Shown here one piece after another: positions 751-55,690 of a DNA stretch of 64,000 nucleotides. The stretch spans positions 48,714,116-48,778,115 of the forward strand of contig NC_081358.1 of the NCBI RefSeq assembly GCF_030684315.1, written 5' to 3'. Numbering within the stretch: the stretch's first letter is position 1; every line of letters begins with the position of its first letter. The translations under genes and the position numbers were made by a program. This DNA is from Stegostoma tigrinum (lineage: Eukaryota). The notes under the pieces are model-generated. The model was given only the letters and a program-made list of their open reading frames with translations. It made no database searches and was not told where the DNA came from.

Positions 751-1861
751 TCCTAACTCTGCACCCAGCTGCTGAAGTTCTGACCGGTTGCTATCCAACT
801 GCCACTGTAAATGAAAGGGTCAGTGTCCAGAGTAAAACAAAGACCGTCCACACTCCACCTGTCCTCACAACATATGTGTGAAGGAAAGAATGTTTTAAAA
901 AACAAAGGCCTCAAACACCAGAAGTGAAAATAAATAATTTGGGCTAGATGACTGGAATGGCAACCCTCAGCAGGATATTTCAAAGGTGCAAATTTCCTAA
1001 ATTCTCAAAGTAAGGTTGGAAAGGCTGCACATGACACCAAAGCTAACTAAATGTGGCATTAAGGGGTTTAGGTAGAATTGAAATCAACGAGAATCTGGAT
1101 GAAGACTCTCTGCTGGTTGAACGTTACCCAGCACCAAGCCAGATGTTTGTGGTCATTAGAGACCAATTAGCTGCACACCAGTGACATCTGTTCCACAGGG
1201 TGGGCCCAGGGCATGTTAATAGAAATTTGTCACTGTACTGAATAGTACATTCTTCTTTCAACGACTAAACCCGTCTGTAACTCTACCTATGATAAATGAA
1301 CTGAAACTTTTATTGTGTTCTAATGCAATCATTAATTCTCCCTGGAATCTTTCATGAGTAAAGTTAAAGTTCATGTGGAAGGCTGAATTACCTGTAATTG
1401 GTTTTCAGATTAGAAATCTTTTGGTAGGACAACAGACAATGAACGGGCACCAAGAATGTTGCGAATCAGATGGCAGGAATTTTCTTTGCTGATGTGACCT
1501 CACTGGGGACTGGTTGGGCCTGGGAATGGTTGACAGGGAGCTCAGGATTGGAACACCAACTGTAATTGTGACTTCTGGTAGGCAAATAGAGTGTGCAGGA
1601 CTACCTTGCAAAATGGTGGCATAATAAATAGATTTCAACTGTGATTAGGATCAACACATCTTCTAGTTATTCAAAATTTTTGCTACTATAATTGCAATTG
1701 TCCAGTTATCCAGTGGAAGGCATTTTCTAGTTCATCAGGTCCTTGCGCAATCCTTTAGCATCACTGAAACCTTCTCATTGAAATATGGTCACATTGAAAG
1801 TTCTGATGACACTGTAAATCTCAATCATGTTAATGATATTCATTATCAACTGAATCAGCAG

Positions 1862-3837
1862 AACAAAGTATGGAGCTGGATGAACACAGCAGGCCAAGCA
1901 GCATCTTAGGACCACAAAAGCTGACATTTCGGGCCTAGACCTTTCATCAGAAAAGGGGGATGGGGAGAGGATTCAGAAATAAATAGGGAGAGAGGGGGAG
2001 GCAGACTGAAGATGGATAGAGGAAAAGATAGGTGGAGAGGAGAGTATTTGTGGTGAGGTAGGGAGGGGATAGGTCAGTCTGGGGAGGATGGACAAGTCAA
2101 GGGGGTGGGATGAGGCTAATAGGTTGGAAATGGAGGTGCAGTTTGAGGTGGGAGGAGGGGATAAGTGAGAGGAAGAACAGGTTATGGCGGTGGGAAAGAG
2201 CTGGGCTGGTTTTGGGATGCAGTGGAGGGAGGGGAGATTTTGAAGCTGGTGAAATCCACATTGATACCATTGGGCTGCAGGGTGCCCAAGCGGAATATGA
2301 GTTGCTGTTCCTGCAGCCTACGGGTGGCATCATTATGGCGCTGTAGGAGGCCCAGGATAGACATGTCGTCTAAGGAATGGGAGGGGGAGTTGAAATGGTT
2401 CATGACTGGGAGATGCAGTTGTTTATTGCGAACCGAGCGGAGGTGTTCTGCAAAGCGGTCCCCAAGCCTCCGCTTGGTTTCCCCAATGTAGAGGAAGCCA
2501 CACCGGGTACAATGGATACAGTATACCACATTGGCAGATGTGCAGGTGAACATGTGCTTGCTGTGGAAAGTCATCTTGGGGCCTGGGATGGGGGTGAGGG
2601 AGGAGGTGTGGGGGCAAGTGTAGCGGTTGCAGGAGAAAGTGACGAGTGTGGTGGGGTTGGAGTGGAAGGTGGAGCAGATAAGGGAGTCACGGAGAGAGTG
2701 GTCTCTCCGGAAGGCAGACAAGGGTGGGGATGGAAAAATGTTTTTAGTGGTGGGGTCGGATTGTAGATGGCAGAAATGTTGGAGGATGATGTGTTGTATC
2801 TGGAGGTAGGTGGGATGGTATGTGAGGACTAGGGGGATTCTCTTTTGGCGGTTGTGGCGGGGGCGGGGTGTGAGGGATGAGGTGTGGGGAATGCGGGAGA
2901 CATGGCCAAGGGCGTTCTCGACCACTGTGGGGGTGAAGTTGTGGTCCTTGAACGTGGACATCTGGGATGCACGGGAGTAAAATGCCTCATCCTGGGAGCA
3001 GATGCAGCGGAGATGAAAGAATTGGGAATGGGGATGGAATTTTTGCAGGAAGGTGGGTGGGAGGAGGTGTATTCCAGGTAGCTGTGGGAGTCGGTGGGCT
3101 TGAAATGGACATTGGTTTCGAGGTGGTTGTCTGAGGTGGAGACAGAGAGGTCCAGGAAGGTGAGAGATGTGTTGGAGATGGCCCAGGTGAACTTAAGGTT
3201 GGGGTGGAAGGTGTAGGTGAAGTGGATGAACTGTTCGAGCTCCTCTTGGGGGCACGAGGTGATGCTGATACAGTCATCAATGTAACGGAGGAAGAGGTGG
3301 AGTTTTGGGCCAGTGTAGGTGCAAAAGAGGGACTGTTCCACATAACCTACAAAGAGGCATATTCTGCTTGAGAACCCTACAGCCCAATGGTATCAATGTG
3401 GATTTCATCAACTTCAAAATCACCCATCCCCCCACTGCATCCCAAAACCACCCCAGCTCCTCCCAGTCTCCTTAACCTGTTCTTCCTCTCACCTATCCCC
3501 TCCTCCCACCTCAAGTCGCACCTCCATTTCCTACCTACTAACCCTCTTCTCGCCCCCTTGACCTGTCTGTCCTTCCCAGACTGGTCTACCCCCTCACTAC
3601 CTTCCCACCCATACTCTCCTCTCCACCTATCTTCTCCTCTATCCATCTTCGGTCCGCCTCCCCCTCTCTCCCTATTTATTGCAGAATCCTCTCCCCATCC
3701 CCCTTTTCTGATGAAGGGGCTAGGCCTGAAACGCCAGCTTTTATGCTCCTCTGATGCTGCTTGGCCTGCTGGGTTCATCCAGCTCCACACTTTATTATCT
3801 CAGATTCTCCAGCATCTGCAGTTCCCATTATCTCTGA
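1862..3837. mobile_element. Penelope-like element (probably Neptune-type), tail-out inverted insertion
   Basis: Minus arm ~1862-3358 (RT end + GIY-YIG + 3' tail) is joined to a plus-strand 3' fragment ~3359-3837. TSD TATCAACTGAATC(A/G)GC at 1844-1859 and 3838-3853. Confidence 0.92.
2182..3341 (-). pseudogene. Frameshifted PLE ORF: RT C-terminal part and GIY-YIG endonuclease
   Basis: ORF 2829-3341 has FLRYIDDC and HFKPTDSHSYL. ORF 2182-2961 has IPLVLTYHP, a Cys-containing linker and VYCIHCTRCGFLYIGETKRRLGDRFAEH. Confidence 0.92.
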
Positions 3838-4019
3838 TATCAACTGAATCGGCGGTTGGGTTAATAATGACTGAGAAACGCCAAATAATTATTTTGACAA
3901 GTTCTGTTTTTTGATTTAATAAGTGTAGGTAGACGTTGAGAAGTTTTATTGCGCTTTTGACTGAGAGAAATGTCATCACTGCACAGAAATAAATTGTGCT
4001 CCTTGATCCTGTAGATTAA

Positions 4020-4112: not shown

Positions 4113-6109
4113 CAACATCCTTTAGCACAGTGATTTGTTTTGATTTATGTTCCTTGCTTGCTTTAATTTATGCTGCCAATAACCTCAATTAGGCCAACTT
4201 AAAATGCATTTTCAAAATAGAACAGACAACCCCTTAGTTACGCTGTCTGTCATGAGCTAAACGATATTGATGTTGCATTAAATGATCCACTCTGGAGTTT
4301 ATTTCACTGCACTTTGTGAGATAATATCAAGTCCTGTCTATTTTACTTTATCAATGCGTATCGCATTGTCATTGTCAGGTCCTTAGGTTTATGTAAATTT
4401 TCTTATTCAAGTTATTTAAAGGTACAACAATAGGTGGCAGTGTCATTCCACTACTTTGACTCATTTGCAAATTGCCCCGCAGTTTTTAACCACTGCTACA
4501 ATCGAGAACCTCGGGCTGAATCTAACAAGTCTAATCGCACGGATGAAGCAGAAGTGTGACCAAAAAAAGGCAGTTTCATTGCGGTAGTATCAAAGATAGC
4601 AATAGAAAGACAGGCCCACACGTCTTTACTGAAAAAAACCTCTCAGCATCAGGTTAGTTTGAAAACTGGAGATTTGAGTTGACTGAAGACATATATTATA
4701 AAAAACATCTGTTCTAAGGATCACCCCCACACATTCCTGCTCTCAGTCACATTGAGCCCATTGTTCATGCAATAGTAATTTTTGCTTGAAAATTAGCAAG
4801 GAAATCAGGATGAAATTGTGTAAGTGTTTTCATCAGTGAAACTAAAATTCTAGGCTGTGTTAAATGTCATGTCAGACCAAACAGTTGTGAAAATAACAAA
4901 TGTCTTTGGGTCTTTTACAAAAGCTAGAGAGATACCAACATCATGAATAGCAGTAAAACTGTGCAGGAATGAAAACATTCAGTTTTAGGCTTGCAAACAT
5001 TTTTGAAAAGATATTGCACATCATATGAAGGGTGGAATTATCCGTGAGCTACTAGTTTGAAGCCTGTACCGGTTCAGAGTGAAGCAAAACTGGCAGGCTC
5101 AGGTTATGCTACTCCTGGGGCAGATAACTACCAGTGAACATCAAATGGTGAGTGCAAAAGTGTTACAAAGTGTTCTCCAACTCCATGCATACTGCTAAGT
5201 TCAAATCAGATTTGCTTCATAGGCAAATTTAATTTATTATTTTTATCAGGTGTGTTCTATTCAAAGGCAGGCTCTTAGTTCATAGTAGTCTTTCCATGCC
5301 TCTCTAATCTCTACCAGTCTTTATATTTGCCTATAACTTCTTTCATTTCTCATATAATCTAATATTGGTATTCTCTGCCTTCATTTTTTTCCTTCAAATC
5401 TTCTCTGTGTAACATCTCCTACAAGTCTTTCCCTTAAGATGATCTCTGTTTCTGATTATGTTCAGCAAATTTCTTTGTTCAATTTCCACAGCAATTACAC
5501 AGAATCTCCACCATCAAACCATTTCCTTAACTATAATTTTTCAGGTCCATTTTCTGTTGACTAATCATGCAGAAGTCTCTAAATGCATGAATGCTTGCAG
5601 GGAGTATTGCGCGACACCATGGGCCATTTTCTTGTTGTTACAATTGAGTTAGGAGTAGTGAACTGATTCCCTCTCTTGTCTGACTTCTCTAATAGTCGCA
5701 ACGAAGGTTGAATTTTAAAAAGAAATGATATTGCCACTTATCTATATGTTAGACTGTATGTAGTTTGGTCATAAAGTCATAGAATAATACAGCATGGAAA
5801 CAGGCCCCTTCAGCCCAAAACTGGTCCGTGCTGACCATGGTGCCCAATCAGCTAGTTCCACTTGTCTGCATTTGGTCCTTATCCCTCTAAACCTTTCCCA
5901 TCCATGTACTTTTCCAAATGCCTTTCAAATGTTTCTATTGTACCTGCCTCAACCACTTTCCCTGGCAGCCCATTCCACAAATGCACCACTCTCTGTGTGA
6001 AGAGGTTGCCCCTCAAGTCCTTCTTCAAGCTATCCTCTCTCATCTTAAACCTATGCCCTCTAATTTTCAATTCCCCATCCCTGGGGGAAAAAAAAACTAT
6101 ACATTCAAA

Positions 6110-6286
6110 TACAAATACAGTGTGGAGCTGGAGGAGCACAGCAGGCCAGGCAGCAAAGGAGCAGGAAAGTTTTGGGTCCAAAACATCAACTTTCCTGCTC
6201 CTCTGATGCTGCCTGGCCTGCTGTGCTCCTCCAGCTCCACACTGTGTTATGTCTGACTCCAGCATTGGTAGCTTTTACTATCTCTG
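6110..6286. mobile_element. Short fold-back element made of two inverted PLE-type tails
   Basis: CAGTGTGGAGCTGGAGGAGCACAGCAGGCCAGGCAGCA is inverted against TGCTGCCTGGCCTGCTGTGCTCCTCCAGCTCCACACTG. Flanking TACATTCA at 6100-6107 and 6289-6296, inside the CR1. Confidence 0.75.
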
Positions 6287-6460
6287 TCTACATTCACCCT
6301 ATCTATGTCCCTCATGATTTTATACACCTAAAAGTCACCCTTCATTCTCCTATGTTCCAAGGAATAAAGTCCTATCCTGGTCAACCTCTCTCTATAACTC
6401 AGGCCTACTAGTTCTGGCAACATCCTTGTAAATCTTCTTTGCACACTTATCAGTTTAAAT

Positions 6461-6889
6461 AGATAACAAAGTGTGGCGCTGGATGAACACAGCAGGCCAA
6501 GCAGCATCTCAGGAGCACAAAAGCTGATGTTTCGGGCCTAGACCCTTCATCAGAAAAGGGGGATGGGGAGAGGGTTCTGAAATAAATAGGGAGAGAGGGG
6601 GAGGCAGATCAAAGATGGATAGAGGAGAAGCAGTGGGAGAGAGATCCCCTAAGGTTTGTCTGGAGGGAGGAGGGTAACTTCTTCATCCCTGGAAGAGGCT
6701 TCGCAGTGAGGTTAAAATTGTATCAGAGATAATGGGAACTGCAGATGCTGGAGAATCTGAGATAACAAAGTGTGGAGCTGGGTGAACACAGCAGAAGTGC
6801 TCCTCAGATGCTGCTTGGCCTGCTCTGTTCATCCAGCTTCACACTTTGTTATCTCGGATTCTCCAGCATCTGCAGTTCCCATTATCTCT
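6461..6889. mobile_element. Rearranged PLE tail insertion (tail, read-through segment, tail, inverted tail)
   Basis: Same tail family as 1862-3837. TSD CAGTTTAA(A/C)TA at 6451-6461 and 6892-6902. Confidence 0.88.
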
Positions 6890-8299
6890 TCCAGTTTAAC
6901 TATGTCTTTCCTGTAACAGGGTGACCAAAACTGTACACAATAGTTCAAGTGTGGCCTCACCAAAGACTTAAACAACTGTAACATAACGTCCCAACTCCTA
7001 TACTCAATGCCTTGACTGATAAAGACCAGCATGCTAAACCCCTTCTTCACCACCCTATCCACCTGTGATGCTGCTTTCAACGAACTATGTACTTGTACTC
7101 CTATGTACTTCTGTTCCACAACATTCCTTAGGATCTTACCATTTATTTGATAAGTCCTACATTGGTTTGACTTTCTAAAATATAACACCTCATGCTTATT
7201 TGTATTAAAATTTCATTTGCCAATCCGTTGCCCACTTTCCCATCTGATCAAGATCCCTCTGTAATTTTTGATAACCTTCCTTGCAGTCAATGATACTTCC
7301 TAATTTCATGCCATCAGAAAAGTTACTAACCATACCTTGTACACTCCCATTCAGATAATTTATGTAAATGACAAATAACAAAGGTCCCAGCCCGAGCCCT
7401 GTGGGACACCACTAGTAACAGGCCTCCTGTCCGAGAAACAGCTTTCAATCACCACCCTTTGCTTCCTACCATCGAGCCAATTTTAAATCCAATTAGCTAG
7501 CTCTCCCTGGATCCCATCCAGGTTTCTTTAATAACAAACATGGAATTCACTTATTTTAAACAAATCTACTCACACGGAGATGTAACAATTATTTACACAA
7601 GGTTTAAACTGTGTGAAGAGGCACAGAACTATCCTTCTTAAAGAATAACATATTCAACCTTCAATAATGGGGAGAAAAACAAATTCTGCAGTGTTATCTT
7701 AACAGTAACTTTGGCCAAGTAACAACTAAGTTCAGGAAAAAAAACCTAATCAAAGATTGTCCAGATGTTAAACTGTAGGCAAAGTCACCTGTCAAGATAT
7801 TTTCCTGGATCAGCTATTGTTGGCTGAATTCACTTTTATTGGAGACAATGGTGTGGATTTCAAGTTCTCCTTTAGGAGTCCTCCACTTGTGGTGCTGAGG
7901 TTTTCCAATGTATATATAACTCACAAACATTGACAAGAGGGATTTCTGAGAAAAGTGAAAGTAGGCAAGTTATCTTTCTCATCTCTCTCTCTCTCTCTTT
8001 CCCTCTCTATGTCCAAATACGACATCATTTATTTTTGTCCATTAACCGAATCAAGGGGCCTCCCTCTGAAAGTGTTGCAGATTTGGTGCCTTCATCCAGG
8101 TATTATAATGTTATCAATGCTGTAACTGATGGAGCTTTTTTCACAAAGTGCTCTTTCCAAAAATATGCATTTATGCACACACATATACATAAGTCCACTT
8201 AATTACACAATAAACTAAAATTTTGGACAGTAATGCTACTAGGGCCTCTTCAAGTAAATAAACAAACTTTAAAGATCTACAGTCTCTTCAAAAGGCTGT

Positions 8300-10039: not shown

Positions 10040-11017
10040 TCTGTTAAAGTAGAAAACTGAAGGAGCTTTGCAGGAACATTATTAGGTAAGGCACTGAGCC
10101 ATGTAAGGGGATACTAAGACAACTGGTCCAAAGCTTGATAAAAGAGATAATGGGAACTGCAGATGCTGGAGAATCCAAGATAACAAAGTGTGGAGCTGGA
10201 TGAACACAGCAGGCCAAGCAGCATCTCAGGAGCACAAAAGCTGACGTTTCGGGCCTAGACTCTTCATCAGAGAGGGGGTGGGGAGAGGGAACTGGAATAA
10301 ACCAAGGGGAAACCAAGCGGAGGCTTGGGGACCGCTTTGCAGAACACCTCCGCTCAGTTCGCAACAAACAACTGCACCTCCCAGTCGCAAACCATTTCCA
10401 CTCCCCCTCCCATTCTCTAGATGACATGCCCATCATGGGCCTCCTGCAGTGCCACAATGATGCCACCTGAAGGTTGCAGGAACAGCAACTCATATTCCAC
10501 CTAGGAACCCTGCAGCCTAATGGTATTAATGTGGACTTCACCGGTTTAAAATCTCCCCTTCCCCCACTGCATCCCAAAACCAGCCCAGCTCGTCCCCTCC
10601 CCCCACTGCACCACATAACCAGTCCAGCTCTTCCCCTCCACCCACTGCATCCCAAAACCAGTCCAACCTGTCTCTGCCTCCCTAACCTGTTCTTCCTCTC
10701 ACCCATCCCTTCCTCCCACCCCAAGCCACACCCCCATCTACCTACTAATCTCATCCCACCTCCTTGACCTGTCCGTCTTCCCTGGACTGACCTATCCCCT
10801 CCCTACCTCCCCACCTATACTCTCTCCACCTATCTTCTTTACTCTCCATCTTCGGTCCGCCTCCCCATCCTCTCCCTGATAAAAGAGGTTTGTTTTAATG
10901 AATACTTTAAATGAAAGTAGGTTGATGGAAAAAATTCCAGTGCCGAGGGTCCAACTACCCAATGGCAAGACCAATCGGCGACGCACAAGATGCCAGAATT
11001 GAAGAAGAACAGGAAAC
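10040..11017 (-). mobile_element. L2 3' fragment interrupted by a PLE; inverted partner of 11967-12207
   Basis: After removing the PLE, the sequence aligns to the reverse complement of 11967-12207 with few differences. Confidence 0.7.
10144..10876. mobile_element. PLE tail-out inverted insertion with GIY-YIG fragment
   Basis: Minus tail 10144-10300 joined to a plus fragment starting GGGGAAACCAAGCGGAGG (GETKRR). TSD TGATAAAAGAG at 10136-10146 and 10877-10887. Confidence 0.92.
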
Positions 11018-28150: not shown

Positions 28151-30759
28151 TGTATACTGATGGCAGTCTGGAAAAGGTGATGACAACGCTGTGCTACACA
28201 CCCTCTAAGAAGCTGGTAATAATAAATTAGCTAAAAATGCACTTCAAATAAAATTGACCATTACATATTACTTATCATTATGATGAATTAGGGATGAAAG
28301 CTGCATACTGACTATAGCGCTTGGTTTTAGTACATAAGTTGAACATATTTGGGCCAGATCAGACAGAATCTGTCTGTGGGAATTTACAAACCACCTCCTC
28401 CAGCTACACCTGTGGCAATGTCAATCAGAATAGGATCACTGACTGACTAATCCATTGTATTATAATCCGTACTTCTGGCAAAAGACTCTCAGAAACATGA
28501 AAAAAGATGATATTCAAAAGTTACCATGGGTGAGTGGGACAATTCTTATAGAAATTCAACTGATTAATATTGCGAACAATCTTCTAAAATAAGCAAAAAC
28601 GGGATCAGTTGTTACAGTTATATGTAGCTGTGTGCTAAAGTATTAATTATCCTGTTCAAGTTGATTCTGTCAATGGCTGTAGGTCCATGGGGGCATGTTC
28701 CCATTCATGTTAAGACAACTTGTAGCTGACCACAGTTTAATCTTTAGTTGACAAAATTACTGGTACTGCCTGACATTATATCCAGGGTAACTGCTTAGTT
28801 CAGAACATTTACCCTGCAGAAAACAAACATTTGATCGAACGGAGCTTGCTTTTGCATGTTATTTCAGAGATATGCACGTTGAAGAGATAGATGAGTACAA
28901 TATTATTTCAAGAAAATAGGATATGAATTCATCTTCTCCCATTAAAACTGTTGGGAGTTTTTATTAAGAATGCAATGGATTTCAGATCTCAAGCTAGAAC
29001 AGACAGACTTTGATTCTCACACTGTCATCTTGCACTGTATGACAAAATGTCTTATTTCATTCAAATCATTATTTTTTACAAGTAGCAATTACAGTGATTA
29101 CTTTGTATTAGTCAATCTGCCCCAGGGTTTAGAGGGCAACACAGTCAGATCGCATTTCTACAGCCGTGCATTTTCATAATTTTTGGTTGGACTGAAAGTT
29201 ATTATTACAATTTGATAAGCTAAGGAAAATGTATTTGCTCAGTAGACAAAGGATTCCTAAACTTGGTAAGAAACTGGGTTCAGCAAATGTAACAAAGCAC
29301 AGCTGCAAATGTCTGAACAAAAGAAGCAGGATTTGCAATGTCAGTGGACATAATGTCTATCGCGTTCTCTTATAAATGTTCTCAGCTAATTCACCTTAGT
29401 TTTCAAATCATTATCTTGAAAAGGCAGTTGAGTACAAGCAATGTTATTTAGAGCAATTATGGTAGCTAAAAGTACATACCTGAATTTGGAAATTAATTGC
29501 TCCGTGTATTAAATTACCTCTGGTATTGATGCATTACTAATTTGTAATTTAGCGGATGGCTTCTGCTGGATAAGGGATGGAGTCAAAATGTGTGAGATGC
29601 TACTGTGATAGTCTGCATTATCACCAGAAGCAATGCAATGTCACTTGATCTTGCTCTCTCACTTGCAACCTCGTGGTAAGATGAAGCTCTGGTAAGATGT
29701 TTCTTGAATAAATTTGTTGCTCTCCCTACCTCAGCAGACTCTGTCAACATTCTTTAGCAACACAATAAGACCAAGAATATTATAGTTTTGAGTGCAGTAA
29801 TGCTGAAGACCCCCAATGGAATTATTAACTTTAATTCCCAGCACAGTACCTTACCAAAAGTGTCAAGTCCTCTACCAGCTTCCCACCTTATTCCAAATGA
29901 TAACACATCATAAGTGTCATACACTGTTAGTCATCATTGAATCAGTGGCTGTAGTTTGAGACCCACTGGAAAGTGAATGGTGTCATACGTCAGCTGAAAC
30001 ATTCAAGTGAATTTTTCACAATATGTGCTGAATTTTACACTGGAGAAAGATGTTACTGGTGGCTCTTTCAGTGCAGCAGCACTAGCTCCTAAGGTGACCA
30101 TTGCTGGGACTTTTTGGGAAGTCTGTTGTGATAAAGCTAGACTTTGAGGTAAATCTGGAGTCTCACCAGGCCCTGAGGTGTAGGGCAAAGAGTTTGGGAG
30201 CTGGGGTTGGTGCATGACATGGGGCTGGGCCCAGCCAGGAGGAGGAAGATGAGGGTGGGAGGACTCTGATTGGCACAGATAAACTGAAAAGAAGGAATAA
30301 GTACTCAAGTCTTGCCACCAGCTCACGCTGTGAAAGATAGCAGGGTGGAGGTTAAGCACTGGCCTACCTCCATGCTGGATAAAATCCCAGAGGCAGTGCA
30401 GGAGACCATTAAGTGGCTACTTATTGGTCACTTAACTTCATCAATTGATCCACAGGCAGACAAGCCTGATCCCCCGTAGTAGTACTCCAACCACTGGTGG
30501 CTTGACACTAGCAGCAGAAATCCAGCATGGTGTCCAATTTTTAAATGTGTCACTTGCATGTCATCCCTGGGGAGGCCCTAAAAATAGCCCCACAAATATT
30601 GACAGCATCTTTCCACCATTTTTTTAATAGACAGACGAAAACAAGCAAGGGCTGTTTGTGATACCAAGTGACCTGTGAAGCCCAACGACAGGTTTGTTAA
30701 ATACAGTATGGTCTACAAGAGCCATCTTAGCCTCATAAATGACAGGACAAATCTGTCAC

Positions 30760-31400
30760 AGGAGGCATTTTCACTTCTACTGGTACGTCTACTGTCCACT
30801 ACAAATCTGGCTTCTTTCACTGATATTTCTGGAGCACTTATCTTTCCTTCCAGCTCATAAATACAAAAACAGAGAGGTTATGATGGATCCTTTATTAAGC
30901 ATTTGTTTGTCTTTGCATGGAACATTGTACCCATTCAAACTTTAGGAAAGATGTTAAAACCTGAGTGAAGATGTGGAAAATATTGACGAGAATGAATTTA
31001 AGGACGAGGGAGTTCAGTTATGTGAATAGACCAGGCAAGTTCTCCTTCGTGAAGTGAAAACTGCGAGAGATGTTCAAAACCAAGGGGGAGCCAGGCAGTC
31101 AGAATCTGTTCTCATTGATAGATGCAGTGAGAATTGCACAAATTTAAGGTGAATAGCAAAAGAACCAAAAATGACATGAGGAAAAACATTATGCAGTAAG
31201 TGGTTATGATCTGTAATGTGCTGCCTAGGACTCTGGTGAAGGCAGACTCAGTTGTAGTTATCGAAGGAGAGTTGCATAAGAGCCTTAAAGGAAAACATTT
31301 GCAGGTCTGTGGGGAAAAGCCAGCGACTAGTATTCAGTGAGTTCCATTCAGAGAGTTGACATGGACTTCAAAGGCCAAGGGACCTCCTTCTGCCATTCTA
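30760..31400 (+). mobile_element. Highly decayed CR1 LINE 3' portion
   Basis: AAATACAAAAACAGAGAGGTTATG and ATGCAGTAAGTGGTTATGATCTGTAATGTGCTGCCT motifs. Confidence 0.6.
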
Positions 31401-32272
31401 CCCTCCTCTTCACAAACTAGTGCAAACATCAAATAATCTTGGTGTATAATAAGTAATATAAAAATTGACATACAAGAGCATAATATCATCCTGTCAAAAA
31501 GAATTGCATAATGTGAAATAAACTAACACTTCAATAAAGAAAATGTACTGTCTTTCATGGTTTGTTGATCATTGGCAGAAATAAGGCTTGTGATGATCAG
31601 GTACAAAATGTGGGAATGTGAGCAGTCATTGACTCAATAGCTCCAAATGTTTAGTAATGTAAAGTTTCAATGCAGGATGAGATCATTGGTCCTGACATGT
31701 CAAAAGAAATTGGTGGAAATGACAAATCAAAGGGCAAAACCATGCAAAAAGATTTGAGAGTTCTGTGAAACACATGGCCACATCCTTCATCCACCAAACA
31801 CAGCAGTGAAGAATCAGTTACTGAGTTTAAAGATACCATTGGCAGCAAAGGACAGGAGAGAGAAGTCCCATGCCAAAGCATTTCATACAGGAATGAAAGA
31901 AAACAATTACTTAAGGACAATGATTCCAATTACAGTGAGTATTGGAACAAGGTATGAAAAGATACCAAATGTGTGTCCAAATACTCCTGACATGATGGTT
32001 AGAAAGAATTCAATAGTTGAGATAGCAGCATTAGTTAAGCCTGGCATTGCATCTACAATTGCTTGACAAATAACCCGAAGCTAATCTAAAGTTTGCCAAA
32101 TAATATTTAGTGCAACCCTCAGCACCAAAGGTTGCGCCCTTTTAACAGTCTCAGCAATTGGTAATTTGAGAAGCAATTCCATGCTATGCAACTGGATAAA
32201 GACTAACCAAGATAATAAAATGTGAGGCTGGATGAACACAGCAGGCCAAGCAGCATCTCAGGAGCACAAAAG

Positions 32273-32304
32273 CTGACGTTTCGGGCCTAGACCCTTCATC
32301 AGAG
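32273..32304 (-). ncRNA. Minimal hammerhead ribozyme motif (mirror of 33185-33216)
   Basis: Exact reverse complement of the plus-strand motif. Confidence 0.65.
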
Positions 32305-33184
32305 AGGGGGATGGGGGGAGGGAACTGGAATAAATAGGGAGAGAGGGGGAGGCGGACCGAAGATGGAGAGTAAAGAAGATAGGTGGAGAAGGTGTGGGTG
32401 GGGAGGTAGGGAGGGGATAGGTCAGTCCAGGGAAGACGGACAGGTCAAGGAGGTGGGATGAGGTTAGTAGGTAGCTGGGGGTGCGGCTTGGGGTGGGAGG
32501 AAGGGATGGGTGAGAGGAAGAACCGGTTAGGGAGGCAGAGACAGGTTGGACTGGTTTTGGGATGCAGTGGGTGGGGGGGAAGAGCTGGGCTGGTTGTGTG
32601 GTGCAGTGGGGGGAGGGGATGAACTGGGCTGGTTTAGGGATGCAGTGGGGGAAGGGGAGATTTTGAAACTGGTGAAGTCCACATTGATACCATATGGCTG
32701 CAGGGTTCCCAGGCGGAATATGAGTTGCTGTTCCTGCAACCTTGCAAGGTTGCAGGAACAGCAACTCATATTCCGCCTGGGAACCCTGCAGCCATATGGT
32801 ATCAATGTGGACTTCACCAGTTTCAAAATCTCCCCTTCCCCCACTGCATCCCTAAACCAGCCCAGTTCATCCCCTCCCCCCACTGCACCACACAACCAGC
32901 CCAGCTCTTCCCCCCCACCCACTGCATCCCAAAACCAGTCCAACCTGTCTCTGCCTCCCTAACCGGTTCTTCCTCTCACCCATCCCTTCCTCCCACCCCA
33001 AGCCGCACCCCCAGCTACCTACTAACCTCATCCCACCTCCTTGACCTGTCCGTCTTCCCTGGACTGACCTATCCCCTCCCTACCTCCCCACCCACACCTT
33101 CTCCACCTATCTTCTTTACTCTCCATCTTCGGTCCGCCTCCCCCTCTCTCCCTATTTATTCCAGTTCCCTCCCCCCATCCCCCT

Positions 33185-33216
33185 CTCTGATGAAGGGTCT
33201 AGGCCCGAAACGTCAG
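33185..33216 (+). ncRNA. Minimal type-I hammerhead ribozyme motif in PLE pLTR
   Basis: CT-CTGATGA-A-GGGT-CTAG-GCCC-GAAA-C-GTC-AG: intact CUGANGA/GAAA core, GUC triplet and palindromic ACGT at stem III. Stem I is only 2 bp. Confidence 0.68.
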
Positions 33217-35021
33217 CTTTTGTGCTCCTGAGATGCTGCTTGGCCTGCTGTGTTCATCCAGCCTCACATTTTATTATCTTGGAATCTCCAGCATCTGCAG
33301 TTCCCATTATCTCTAAAGACTAACCAAGTTTGCCAAAGATAATAGCTGTGTAAATGGCACTAGGGATGTAAGAAGTTCTGAATTGAGGGGATGTCACATT
33401 TTGAAGAATATGATTGTAACCCTGACATCCAAGATGGTGCCAGTGTTCAAGTTCCATTGTTGAAATTATAGTTAGAGTCTATCCAGAGGCAGCAAACCTG
33501 TTTCCATTGATTTAACATAAAAACAACTCCACTAATAGGAGGGAAGTTAGCTGAAGTGAGTGCATGTCCATGGATGCAAAATATCTCATGCAGTATCAGG
33601 AAATGTCATCCTGTTTAATGAAAGCTACAAAAGACTGCGTTAAGGTGCAACTGGTCTCTAACATTAGATTGGTAGATTGGGAAAAAAAGTGTTGTGAAAC
33701 ATCTCAGTGAAGGTCACAATCATAGAGGAGCTAGATCCTGTAACTGGGGCATGATCATGAATCTGTAAGACCTGTTGGTACAGTCTGGTACTTGGTTCAA
33801 TCCATCTCCAGTAACAAAGTAGTGATGTCCCACTTGTTCAAAGCATTGTCCACTGTGTGTTCTGATTTTGTTCACCAGAAGACATTTGTAAAGCAAATTG
33901 ACAGCTCTATAATTGTGCATCATAACACTGAGTTGGGTAACCAGTTCATACACATTATAAACTAAATTACATTCCAGGGATGTGGCCACAATTTTTGTAC
34001 TGAACTTAACTTGTGTAGTTCAACAGATAGAACTCTGTTATAATACAAGTGGCTGAGGCTGAGAGATGGGCTTAGTATCAAAAGGAAGTGGTGACTGAAA
34101 CAGTGTGGAGGATTACTGACATCTAACAAGTTATACTTATTTCTCAATCAAGCCTATATTTCTAACCAGATATTGTTGCACCATGCTGCAACCATACCAG
34201 GATTCTTCATAGGCACACTTCTCGCTTTCTCTTTTCTTGTCCCTCTCACAGAAGTGGACATGAATATCTGTACGTATTTAATCATGACTTGAAGAGATCA
34301 TTAAAAGAAGTATTTTTACTTTGCTACATGCTACATGAATGTTTCTTACTGTCTCACACAGATGTCAATGGATAAAAGAAGTATAATCAACCTAAACAGT
34401 TAGACTACATTTTCAAGATAAACATTAAAAAGTGACATAATTTAATCGGGATTACGTGTCACTGCATCCCCTTCAGAGAAAGAAAACTATTATATTATGG
34501 CATTCACAAAACATTACCACAAAGTTGGCTTGCCTCATTGTAGTAGCTCCTTTATGCCTAGTCTTGAAATTATCTGTATTGCCAGCCGATTTAACCGAGA
34601 GGATAAATGCATTATTCAGCAAGGAAAACAGTCTCACAACTCCTGCCATTGACCCATGCCTGCAGCATGAGACAGCAGGGCAACGTCTATAATCTGTGAG
34701 CATTCCCTGAGTTCGGGCAATCATTGATTGCACTATTCAGCCTCCACTTCACAATATGTTGTCTCTTTGTCAGCTGGAAAGAAGATTTATTCTCACAATT
34801 TCCAGCAACACAGGCCAGTTCCATGTCAGCAAATCCCTTGCTTCAGTGGCACGCTCATAATTAAAGGTGAGAGAGGGCCAATAAGGGAGGCGTTGAGAGT
34901 TATAGTTTTAAGAAATTGTGCAAAATGTTAATATGGCCAAAACAAGACATTGTAACTTCAAACAATCATTGACTTTATCACTGTTCAGGAACAACAGGAA
35001 GCATAAAAACCTGATGGGGAC

Positions 35022-35240: not shown

Positions 35241-35303
35241 AACTGTGTTTTGTTGTGCTTAATATATTCACATCGGAAAGAAACTGAGCTAGTTAATCCT
35301 CAA

Positions 35304-36079
35304 CCATTGCATCCGGTGTGGCTATATCTACATTGGGGAAACCAAGCGGAGGCTTGGGGACCGCTTTGCAGAACACCTCTGCTCGGTTCGCAACAAACAA
35401 CTGCACCTCCCAGTCGCAAACCATTTCCGCTCCCCCTCCCATTCCTCAGACGACATGTCCATCATGGGCCTCCTGCAGTGCCACAATGATGCCACCCGAA
35501 GGTTGCAGGAACAGCAACTCACATTCCGCTTGGGAACCCTGCAGCCCAATGGTATCAATGTGGACTTCACAAGCTTCAAAATCTCCCCTTTCCCCACTGC
35601 ATCCCAAAACCAGCCCAGTTCTTCCCCTCCACCCACTGCATCCCAAAACCAGCCCAGCTCGTCCCTTCCCCCCACTGCATCCCAAAACCAGCCCAGCTCA
35701 TCCCCTCCACCCACTGCATCCCAAAACCAGTCCAACCTGTCTCTGCCTCCCTAACCTGTTCTTCCTCTCACCCATCCCTTCCTCCCACCCCAAGCCGCAC
35801 CTCCATTTCCTACCTACTAACCTCATCCCACCTCCTTGACCTGTCCGTCTTCCCTGGACTGACCTATCCCCTCCCTACCTCCCCACCTATACTCTCCTCT
35901 CCACCTATCTTCTTTACTCTCCATCTTCGATCCGCCTCCCCCTCTCTCCCAATTTATTCCAGAACCCTCTCCCCGTCTCCCTCTCTGATGAAGGGTCTAG
36001 GCCAGAAACGTCAGCTTTTGTGCTCCTGAGATGCTGCTTGTCCTGCTGTGTTCATCCAGCTCCACACTTTGTTATCTTG
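35304..36079 (+). mobile_element. 5'-truncated PLE (GIY-YIG, 39-bp repeats, pLTR with hammerhead-like motif at ~35984-36015)
   Basis: HCIRCGYIYIGETKRRLGDRFAEH...EQQLTFRLGTLQPNGINVDF followed by the standard tail. No clear TSD seen. Confidence 0.92.
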
Positions 36080-38511: not shown

Positions 38512-39450
38512 TTTCTTTTATTTGAAAAAATATACTTTATTCATAAGATGTACAAAAAAAAACATATTTACACACCTACCCAGTCATGCAAGCCGCTCCG
38601 GGTTACCCAGGGGGTACATACACCAACTAAAGGAAAAAAAACAAAGAAGGAAAAGACAAAGCAAAGAAAATACCCCGGCAGTCGTCACCCCGCACAGTCC
38701 CAGTTGGCCTCCTGACCAGTTGGGGAAGGCGCCAGCTGGGCGCAGTTACCAGATAGGGCCCATTTTTCCATTCTGGACGAGGGGTTTCATACGGTGGTCT
38801 TTCCACACCGCGCCTTGGTGGCGGCTGCCCCAAGCTTTAGCGCGTCCCTCAGCACGTAGTCCTGGACCTTGGAGTGCGCCAGTCTGCAACACTCGGTCGG
38901 GGTCAGTTCTTTCAGCTGGCAGACCAGCAAGTTCCGGGCAGACCAAAGAGTGTCTTTCACCGCATTGATGGTGCTCCAGGCGCAGTTGATGTTGGTCTTG
39001 GTGTGCGTCCCGGGAAACAGCCCGTAGAGCACGGAGTCCCGTGTCACGGAGTTGCTCGGCACGAACCTCGACAAATACCACTGCATCCCCCTCCAGACCT
39101 CCTGCGCATAGGCACATCCAGAAGGAGGTGATCGACAGTCTCGTCCCCCCCTGCAGCCGCCTTGAGGGCAGTGTGCGGTGGCGCAGAGATTCCGGGCATG
39201 CATAAAGGATCTCACTGGCAGAGCCCCTCTCACCGCCAGCCAAGCAATGTTCTTGTGCTTGTTTGAAAGTTCTGGCGATGAGGCATTCTGCCAAACGATT
39301 TTGGCAGTCTGCATGGGGAACCACACGACGGGATCCACCCTCTCCTTTTCCCGAAGGGTCCTGAGGATACTACGTGCTGACCACTGCCTGACAGCCTTGT
39401 GGTCAAAGGTGTTTCCTTTCAAAAATTTCTCCACGAAGGACAGGTGGTGT
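38512..39450 (-). mobile_element. Tx1/L1-clade LINE 3' fragment (ORF2 C-terminal Cys-rich region, 3' UTR, A-rich tail)
   Basis: ORF 38787-39434: IVWQNASSPELSNKHKNIAWLAVRGALPVRSF...CPQGGC...VKDTLWSARN. Minus-strand AATAAA and A-rich end at ~38512-38552. GC/CpG-rich relative to the flanks. Confidence 0.88.
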
Positions 39451-39457
39451 GTTGGAT

Positions 39458-40890
39458 CTGCTTCTACGGACTACCAAAAATTCACAAACCAGGAGCCCCC
39501 CTCAGACCCATAGTGTCTCTACCTGGAACACCAACACACAGATTAGCCAAGGAACTACACCAAAGACTAAAACACCTAGTAGAAGACTCCCACCACGCCA
39601 TTCACTCCACCCAAGAATTCCTGAACACCATCAAAGACACCAAGATAGAAGAGGATGAAGTAATGGTCTCCTTTGATGTAACAGCCCTGTTCACATCCAT
39701 CAACATCAACCTGGCCAAGGAAACACTGACTGCACTATTAGAAGAACCGAAGACACATACACCAGACACCACCAACCTCATCAGCAAGGACAGCATCAAG
39801 CTAGTGGACCTATGGCTTACCACCCACTTCACTTTCAATAACAAAACCTACAGACAAACCAACGGTACACCCATGGGATCTCCGATATCAGGGTTCTTAG
39901 CAGAGGCAGTAATGCAGAGACTCGAACAAACAGCTCTGCCAATCATCCAACCCAAACTTTGGATCCGCTATGTGGATGACACCTTTGTCATCACTAAACA
40001 AAACAAATTAGAGGAAACCTTCAAGACCATCAATAATACCGTTACTGGCATAACATTCTCAAAAGAGGAGGAAAACAACAACAAACTGCCATTCCTAGAT
40101 GTCACAGTAGAGCGAACAGTCAATGGGGAACTTCAAACCAGTGTCTACAGGAAAACAACACATACGGACCAAATACTGAACTACAGGAGCAACCATCCCA
40201 ACACCCACAAACAAAGCTGCATTAGAACATTATTCCAACGAGTCACCACACACTGTAGCACAGAGGAACTACGAAGAGCAGAAGAAAATCACCTATACAG
40301 CGTATTCAAAAAGAACGGGTACCCTAGTCCGCCGATTTCTCAGCAACAAACCCAAACAAACAGACAAAATGGGCCCAGAAACCGTAACCACTCTCCCCTA
40401 CATCAAAGACATTTCCGAAATGACTGCCAGACTACTCGGACCCCTTGGCATCAGGGTAGCCCACAAACCCACCAACACACTAAAACAGCAGCTAATGAAC
40501 TTAAAAGACCCTATACAGACAACAAACAAAACAAACGTCATCTACAAAATACCTTGCAAGAACTGTGACAAACACTACATTGGATAAACAGGCAGGAAGC
40601 TAGCCACCAGAATACATGAACATCAACTAGCCACAAAACGACATGACTCACTATCACTCGTATCCTTACATACAGATGAGGAAGGACACCACTTTGATTG
40701 GGACAACACATCCATCCTAGGACAAGCCAAACAGAGACACGCACGAGAATTCCTAGAAACATGGCATTCCAACCGGAACTCCATCAACAAACACATTGAT
40801 TTGAAGCCAATCTACCATCCCCTGAGAAAAAGAACAGGAAACGACATCACCAACACAGGAAATGACATCACCAACCCAAGGCAACCTAAA
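39458..40890 (+). pseudogene. Poseidon-type PLE ORF (RT + GIY-YIG), 5' truncated, one frameshift and one stop
   Basis: FYGLPKIHK, PLRPIVS, SFDVTALFT, GTPMGSPISG, WIRYVDDTF, then VIYKIPCKNCDKHYIG*TGRKLATRIHEH. Confidence 0.95.
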
Positions 40891-40936
40891 CAGATAAATA
40901 GAAAGCGGGACATAACACCAGCGCTTTGTCGGCGGC

Positions 40937-40976
40937 TCACTGATGATCGTACCTAGATTGGTGACGAAACGTCTGA
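40937..40976 (+). ncRNA. Minimal type-I hammerhead ribozyme motif in Poseidon-type pLTR
   Basis: TCA-CTGATGA-T-CGTACC-TAGATT-GGTGAC-GAAA-C-GTC-TGA: 3-bp stem I and intact core. The base of stem II is mismatched in this copy. Confidence 0.72.
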
Positions 40977-47713: not shown

Positions 47714-48140
47714 AGTGGCATGGCAGATCAGTGCTTAGCACTGCTGCCTCACAGCATTAGGGACCTGGGAGACTATCTGAATGGAGTTTGCACATTGTCC
47801 CTGTTTCTTCCTTCCACAGCCCAAAAGTGTGCAGGTAAGGTGGATTTTTCTGATGAAGGGTCTAGGCCTGAAACATCAGCTTTTGTGGTCCTAAGATGCT
47901 GCTTGGCCTGCTGTGTTCATCCAGCTCCGCACTTTGCTATATTGGATTCTCCAGCATCTGCAGTTCCCATTCTCTCAGGTAAGGTGGATTGGATTTGCTA
48001 AATTGTCCCATAGTGCCCAGAAATGTGCAAGTTAGGTGTTAAATGCAGAATTACAGGGATAGAATAAGATGCTCTTTGGAAGGTTGGTGTTGACTCAATG
48101 GGCTGAATGACCTCTTTCCAAACTTTAAGGATTCTATGAC
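47714..48140 (+). mobile_element. HE1-type SINE with nested PLE tail
   Basis: GTGGCATGGCAGATCAGTGCTTAGCACTGCTGCCTCACAGC...GGATTCTATGAC. Confidence 0.85.
47847..47975 (+). mobile_element. 129-bp solo PLE tail starting at the hammerhead core
   Basis: TTTCTGATGAAGGGTCTAGGCCTGAAACATCAG...GTTCCCATTCTCT. Perfect TSD CAGGTAAGGTGGATT at 47832-47846 and 47976-47990. Confidence 0.92.
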
Positions 48141-55567: not shown

Positions 55568-55690
55568 TGATAATGGGAACTGCAGATGCTGGAGAATCCA
55601 AGGTAACAAAGTGTAGAGCTGGATGAACACAGCAGGCCAGGCAGCATCTCAGGAGCACAAACGCTGACGTTTTGGGCCTAGACCCTTCAT
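55568..55690 (-). mobile_element. Solo PLE tail truncated inside the hammerhead core
   Basis: GATAATGGGAACTGCAGATGCTGG...GGGCCTAGACCCTTCAT, same family as 47847-47975. Confidence 0.9.

Follow-up and report, generated by a model that had tools for sequence, protein, structure and literature searches.

A spacer-less 1076-bp palindrome left by a Penelope-like element in the genome of Stegostoma tigrinum

The palindrome and its element

The window, i.e. the whole 64,000-nucleotide stretch of Stegostoma tigrinum DNA analysed here, harbors two 538-nt arms, a tail-less inverted arm at 32207-32744 on the minus strand and a forward arm at 32745-33282 on the plus strand, which are 100% complementary (538/538) with 0 nt between them. 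The absence of any mismatch and of a spacer, claimed in an earlier sequence-only reading of this DNA, was thereby reproduced by an inverted-repeat search, in which the structure is the sole perfect inverted repeat of the window with arms of at least 20 nt and a spacer below 30 nt. It is bracketed by a 15-nt target-site duplication (TSD) at 32197-32211 and 33314-33328, identical at 15/15 positions and occurring exactly twice in the window; contigs of three sequencing runs (X16, X17 and X4, discussed below) diverge directly after the end of the left copy at 32211, and the right copy is recognised from sequence, by its identity to the left one. The one-sided extension that had been described is present as a 31-nt tail (33283-33313, plus strand) on the right side only, between the forward arm and the right TSD and outside the palindrome, and corresponds to the distal 3' end of the element, the same end being reached by other tailed copies. 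The inverted arm runs from element position 538 to 1 of the 569-nt forward copy, and its junction with the left flank is contained in a contig of run X15. As one TSD encloses both arms, the claim of a single insertion event holds.

The left TSD and the inverted arm overlap by 5 nt (CCAAG, 32207-32211), which close the former and open the latter and constitute a microhomology whose complement is present at arm positions 495 and 534. The centre reads CCTTG followed by CAAGG and departs from the family sequence, as had been noted, with C at arm position 1 as opposed to G in all three window copies that span the site. The central dinucleotide, G at 32744 and C at 32745, therefore lies outside the family sequence and was likely non-templated or added by repair. 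With a G+C content of 56%, the forward arm diverges by 6.9-14.6% from four other copies of the window, and 16 of 431 informative columns are private to the palindrome copy in a comparison confined to window copies. The two examples of private variants that were put forward earlier did not survive this comparison: CCCTAT is the majority state (three of the four copies covering the whole site), and a TAPHNQ-type repeat unit is also found in the copy at 10306-10877.

The forward arm comprises the 3' end of an open reading frame, tandem units of about 41 nt and a pseudo-LTR region. The reading frame at 32747-32962 on the plus strand (RLQEQQLIFRLG...) has no start and translates into the C-terminal ~70 residues of an endonuclease of the GIY-YIG type, a peptide that is also found after the GIY-YIG core in the copy at 2182-3189 and in homolog P0012. 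The palindrome itself holds only these last ~70 codons, and the remnant is, on its sequence, effectively non-coding. The features that define an endonuclease-bearing Penelope-like element (PLE), namely a C-terminal GIY-YIG domain, two core cysteines and a CCHH motif, are present in a longer family copy (copy A, 1862-3359), where the core with its two internal cysteines and the motif VVYCIHCTRCGFLYIG...EH...NH can be read directly. The copy at 2182-3189 matches Pfam GIY-YIG with an E-value of 6.8e-4 at 20.3 bits, under the cut-off of 22.6, and homolog P0045 clears the cut-off. A further mark of the group is a telomerase-related reverse transcriptase (RT) ahead of the endonuclease in one ORF; a piece bearing YIDD, which gives no Pfam match, lies upstream in copy A, and homologs P0012 and P0019 carry the YIDD motif and the endonuclease in a single frame. 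Besides the endonuclease, the characteristics of this group found here are the TSD-enclosed inverted 5'-truncated copy, the one-sided tail within 30-40 bp and the minimal hammerhead motif in the pseudo-LTR. The palindrome is hence a 5'-truncated endonuclease-bearing PLE in a cartilaginous fish, and the top named homologs of its family come from rays and sharks.

Within the PLEs, a CX2-5CxxC linker before the GIY-YIG domain marks the Neptune and Nematis clades and is described as absent from Penelope/Poseidon (PMC8557442). Homolog P0012, with 56% identity across 98% of the query, has the complete linker (CKRNKCYTC), of which copy A retains two of the three cysteines. Because P0012 carries this motif, the clade is likely Neptune, an assignment made from a motif that is common to Neptune and Nematis and does not separate them. 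Membership in the Penelope/Poseidon clade was rejected, as it requires a linker devoid of the zinc finger.

The arrangement is in line with published PLE insertions. Endonuclease-bearing PLEs are described with an inverted pseudo-LTR beside the insert, a TSD around both and a one-sided 31-bp tail, and palindromes at their head-to-head junctions have been interpreted as products of self-priming (Arkhipova et al. 2013, PMC3846280); the same layout, with a one-sided tail of 30-40 nt, is extended to all endonuclease-bearing PLEs by Craig et al. (2021, PMC8557442). The closest likeness in these two sources is Pen2a_Av of Adineta vaga, in which a 5'-truncated copy and a head-to-head inverted copy share one TSD and a one-sided 31-nt tail, with a palindrome at the inverted junction and a hammerhead in the pseudo-LTR. 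However, the palindromes reported there are short (18 and 38 bp) and situated at the 5' end of the pseudo-LTR, whereas the one described here extends over the full 1076 bp without a spacer, and an empty allele exists for it. The palindrome is thus the known PLE insertion layout at its zero-spacer extreme; the missing spacer is its only unusual trait and likely arose while the element was copied in. A literature search of incomplete coverage brought up neither a kilobase spacer-less PLE palindrome nor twin priming by a PLE.

Filled and empty sites

Contigs of four of the 21 listed sequencing runs were compared with the window over 31876-32775, three from organism E (X15, X16 and X17) and one from organism A (X4), leaving out three bisulfite runs and 14 others. 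Between 0.91 and 0.99 of the sampled words of 30600-34900 are contained in the four organism E runs, the highest share (0.99) being that of X15. A 4467-nt contig of X15 (sample S8) crosses the left flank and, beyond the TSD, enters the inverted arm for 18 bases. For sample S9 (same species label), a contig of X16 (5276 nt) and one of X17 (5441 nt) match the window as far as 32211 and then continue with 845 letters each that are unlike the arm. The contig of X4, which belongs to another species, likewise stops matching at 32211 and continues with 1843 letters unlike the arm; its flank differs from the window by 13 letters and one gap in 336. From the exact stop at the TSD end and the high share of words, we infer that the letters past 32211 in X16, X17 and X4 are the right flank. 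The filled junction is therefore seen in S8 (one of one run), and the empty site in S9 (two of two runs) and in organism A (one of one). S9 may be heterozygous, given that contigs drop rare paths, and S8 and S9 carry separate sample labels which may stand for one animal or two. Taken together, the species apparently has an empty allele, the ancestral state was apparently empty and the insertion is young and apparently segregating. This comparison of filled and empty sites, which the sequence-only reading had recommended, bears out its expectation of a very young or polymorphic insertion, and the identity of the arms is explained by this youth. At a divergence of 7%, that of the neighbours, 538/538 identity between the arms would have a probability of about 1e-17, and at 0.5% one of about 0.07.

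Two other accounts of the identical arms can be weighed against these data. One, which is improbable, accepts the insertion as real and has its exact centre or perfect arms stem from assembly, from polishing or from a later repair that removed a spacer. The contig evidence is confined to the left junction; the centre, which the very many repeat contigs did not resolve, and the right junction are seen in the assembly, no listed piece spans the compared stretch, and X15 may itself be the source of the assembly. The 0.99 share of words in X15 also leaves room for the few centre words to be absent from it. Against such an account, the left junction is present in contigs of raw data, the empty allele places the TSD end at exactly the same base, and in a segregating insertion identical arms are to be expected even with no homogenisation. 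A simple fold-back of a read, argued against already in the sequence-only reading, would moreover not yield different flanks and a tail. Far less probable still is that two independent insertions hit one site, or that an old insertion had its arms kept identical as a useful hairpin. The 7% distance of the arm from its nearest relatives in the window is the sole point in favor of this, and it is countered by the single TSD around both arms and largely refuted by the empty sites of sample S9 and organism A. Furthermore, tens of thousands of short contigs (35,731 of the 122,087 placed in X15) match the arm at 99% or more, pointing to a widespread young subfamily rather than to private decay. Read depth over the arm is unusable as a copy number, and differences and joints of the arm were counted only partly in X15-X17.

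In addition, there are contigs of other loci in which the antisense arm is joined to the sense start near the same centre (window positions 32325-32752, 32693-32746 and 32698-32751), two of these joins being present in all three organism E runs. They are probably further head-to-head junctions with spacers.

Neighbouring insertions and the origin of the palindrome

Four further head-to-head insertions with TSDs of their own lie in the window: A (1844-3853), D (6100-6296), B (6451-6902) and C (10136-10887). Measured from the element end, the start of the tail-less arm lies at 31 nt in the palindrome, 38 nt in A (at 1862), 34 nt in B (at 6461), 38 nt in D (at 6108) and 160 nt in C. A start in the range of 30-40 nt is hence shared by four of these five insertions from one window, C being the exception, and the one-sided tail measures 34-38 nt in A, B and D. 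In three neighbours the tail-less arm is longer than the tailed arm, measuring 1498 nt against 477 nt in A, 334 nt against 92 nt in B and 572 nt against 158 nt in C, and holds sequence missing from it, from which it follows that these three tail-less arms were copied from RNA and not from the tailed cDNA. In D, the 59-nt arm is contained in the longer tailed arm and is compatible with priming from two nicks as well as with snap-back of the cDNA. Identity between the arms amounts to 384/437 in A, 58/59 in D and 65/69 at the centre of B, as compared to 538/538 in the palindrome. The two arms of C, enclosed by one 11-bp TSD, abut without overlap, the tailed one stopping at element position 411 and the inverted one at 409; this is the textbook pattern of twin priming, in a PLE.

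Individual features of these neighbours were also recorded. A is an older copy, with remains of the RT thumb and the endonuclease in its 1.5-kb tail-less arm, arms that are 88% identical and CpG-type mismatches in its TSD. The inverted arm of B leads from the pseudo-LTR across an internal deletion to 95 nt which in the element follow the tail, and on to a second tail; because it runs past the tail sequence, its template was a partial tandem. The centre of B is near-palindromic with a spacer of about 23 nt. D is short and belongs to another subfamily; at its junction, a 6-bp inverted repeat flanks a 2-nt core, and the junction of C shows a short duplicated motif resembling a templated repair insert.

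In L1 twin priming, the two pieces derive from different parts of the RNA and hence form no long palindrome. An inversion of the L1 type was rejected for the palindrome, as its arms overlap completely and the same 538 nt were copied in both; among the window copies only C has the separate pieces. What the insertions share with L1 twin priming (Ostertag and Kazazian 2001, cited after PMC10760644 and PMC10191854) is a 5' inversion inside one TSD and, probably, the priming of a second cDNA at the second target nick, with C displaying the non-overlapping form.

A biochemical counterpart is the anole PLE Poseidon of Anolis carolinensis, for which nicking and extension of both target strands were described in vitro, together with two start sites of reverse transcription whose separation equals the tail and initiation without target homology (Frangieh et al. 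2024, PMC11167929). The shark insertions are alike in the spacing of two start sites, which equals the tail, and in double-strand nicking, both deduced from sequence in the shark. They differ from Poseidon in belonging to another clade and in that the shark junction has 5 nt of homology, which Poseidon initiation does not need.

The explanation we prefer, by a narrow preponderance of probability, is that both target nicks primed reverse transcription on one RNA, 31 nt apart, and that both cDNAs extended to a common end of this RNA before they were linked head to head. Its steps are reconstructed from the observed structure, filled left junction and empty site. The GIY-YIG endonuclease would nick the two strands 15 nt apart, as the TSD suggests, and the bottom-strand nick would prime at the distal start site and yield the tailed arm. 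The top-strand nick, ending in CCAAG, would pair with the RNA 31 nt further in and yield the tail-less arm. With an RNA end at one base, both cDNAs would stop there, and one or two added bases (the central G and C) and end joining would seal the centre. Unequal arms elsewhere would arise where one enzyme halts early, and in C the top nick would prime deeper. Two primers on one RNA would accommodate all five insertions. The proposal is favored because the tail-less start falls at 31-38 nt in four of the five, like the two start sites in vitro, because the tail-less arms of A, B and C were copied from RNA, and because the non-overlapping arms of C (411/409) fit two primers sharing one RNA. It has a cost, in that the ending of both cDNAs on one base is an additional assumption and no RNA end is known at the shared stop, which falls within the coding sequence of the endonuclease at a distance of 442 nt upstream from the hammerhead. 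Moreover, initiation in vitro proceeds without target homology, whereas the junction of the palindrome has 5 nt, which would equally suit DNA end joining.

Snap-back, the origin suggested in the sequence-only reading, is a possible explanation that we do not favor and consider the less probable one. In its pure or hybrid form, the first cDNA would fold at its 3' end and the hairpin copy would anneal to the top target strand, either via the CCAAG microhomology or via a short second cDNA from the internal start site. A zero or tiny spacer is its direct prediction, which also counts against two-nick priming, and the hybrid of a hairpin cDNA and a short second cDNA fits every feature of the palindrome copy. 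The three added bases (GCA) can be templated from TGCAA just upstream, where the adjacent end folds weakly (-2.0 kcal/mol). In the family sequence, however, the centre offers no hairpin from which the observed junction would readily follow, and the first 19-20 nt of the cDNA end do not fold onto its final bases. The target overhang has its nearest match at positions 534-538, so that joining there needs no special site, but in pure snap-back the common start at 31-38 nt in four of five insertions becomes a coincidence. Precedents are the self-priming interpretation of PLE junction palindromes (PMC3846280) and the self-annealing via small hairpins to which inverted duplications of target DNA at L1 sites are attributed (10.1101/2024.12.14.628481). 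The neighbours also speak against snap-back: it fails for three of the four other head-to-head insertions, since the extra sequence in the tail-less arms of A, B and C cannot be produced by it, and the family would then need two routes.

The origin of tandem and inverted PLE structures is treated as an open question in the sources considered (PMC8557442, PMC11167929). The palindrome is a dead copy without an expected function and, on its own, one copy of a known layout with modest mechanistic value. As a segregating palindrome with identical arms, an empty site and intact junctions, it would nevertheless, once its source element is known, constitute a clean specimen for telling two-nick priming from snap-back, and it illustrates, for the left junction, that perfect palindromes of kilobase length in assemblies may represent real young alleles and not read artefacts. 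A wider generalization is tentative and, in our judgement, rather unlikely: that shark Neptune-type PLEs copy one RNA from both nicks and that run-off at the RNA end writes spacer-less germ-line palindromes of about 1 kb. If true, many such palindromes would segregate in shark populations, providing a direct genomic read-out of PLE arm joining and a natural test of the persistence of long perfect GC-centred palindromes in a vertebrate.

Secondary structures and further sequences of the window

The description of the palindrome as cruciform-prone was overstated. Cruciform extrusion in vivo is described as needing an AT-rich centre (PMC1851657), and it is less likely here because 10 of the central 20 bases are G+C and the arms have 56% G+C. 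The resemblance to human PATRRs, as presented in that source, consists of a long, near-perfect and polymorphic palindrome in a vertebrate genome; PATRRs are 190-600 bp long with 1-3 G+C in the central 20 bp, unlike the shark centre. A cruciform-extruding structure of the PATRR type was accordingly rejected, the symmetric centre being present and the AT-rich one absent. Hairpins in single strands of the palindrome are possible.

A hammerhead motif on either strand had been anticipated, and a motif scan with a core pattern located one minimal motif on each, at 33187-33214 on the plus strand (arm positions 443-470, with a 4-bp stem II that forms in a predicted fold) and, as its mirror copy, at 32275-32302 on the minus strand. 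The former matches the minimal hammerhead ribozyme described in PMC4209133, and the minimal motif of the family is found at six other places. Rfam gave no hammerhead match; its 11 matches are all below the gathering score, 10 of them being miRNA-like folds of the palindrome centre and none meaningful. As minimal hammerheads are reported to need a partner and to cleave poorly (PMC4209133), and as each single motif would here pair with its own antisense, both are likely inactive. A screen with sampled words found no RNA run on record containing the palindrome stretch, and four of four single-arm segments tested for RNA structure at the tail or the truncation point fold no better than shuffles (z from -0.65 to +0.49).

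Two further candidates were rejected. A target resembling the element's own end is represented by a near match 4 nt beyond the TSD, which is attributable to chance (p 0.051 against 4000 background windows, the score being the best of 12 flanks from 6 insertions), and the natural 7-bp inverted repeat of the family near the centre would, as the source of the palindrome, leave a spacer of 26 nt. The 29-nt tail pattern was found neither in viral nor in metagenome contigs (0 loci in each). A motif of about 17 nt occurs at 32085-32112, about 110 nt upstream of the target, and again across the end of the right TSD (33323-33348), and resembles the second start site of the element, a likeness without significance against background.

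Solo tailed copies at 47832-47990, with a perfect 15-bp TSD, and at 55569-55690 start at element positions 442 and 446, i.e. at the 5' edge of the hammerhead (443) and not at its predicted cut (470). A tail-less copy at 35293-36079 stands by itself and breaks off some 32 nt before the element end; neither a partner arm nor a TSD was found for it. A second, Poseidon-like PLE at 39381-40973 has a reverse transcriptase match (Pfam RVT_1, E-value 2.9e-13), a GIY-YIG-type region in another frame and a hammerhead-like motif of its own at 40940-40973. Adjoining it, a minus-strand frame at 38787-39470 with a weak zf-RVT match (E-value 2e-4, below the cut-off) is likely the end of a LINE of the Tx1/L1 type.
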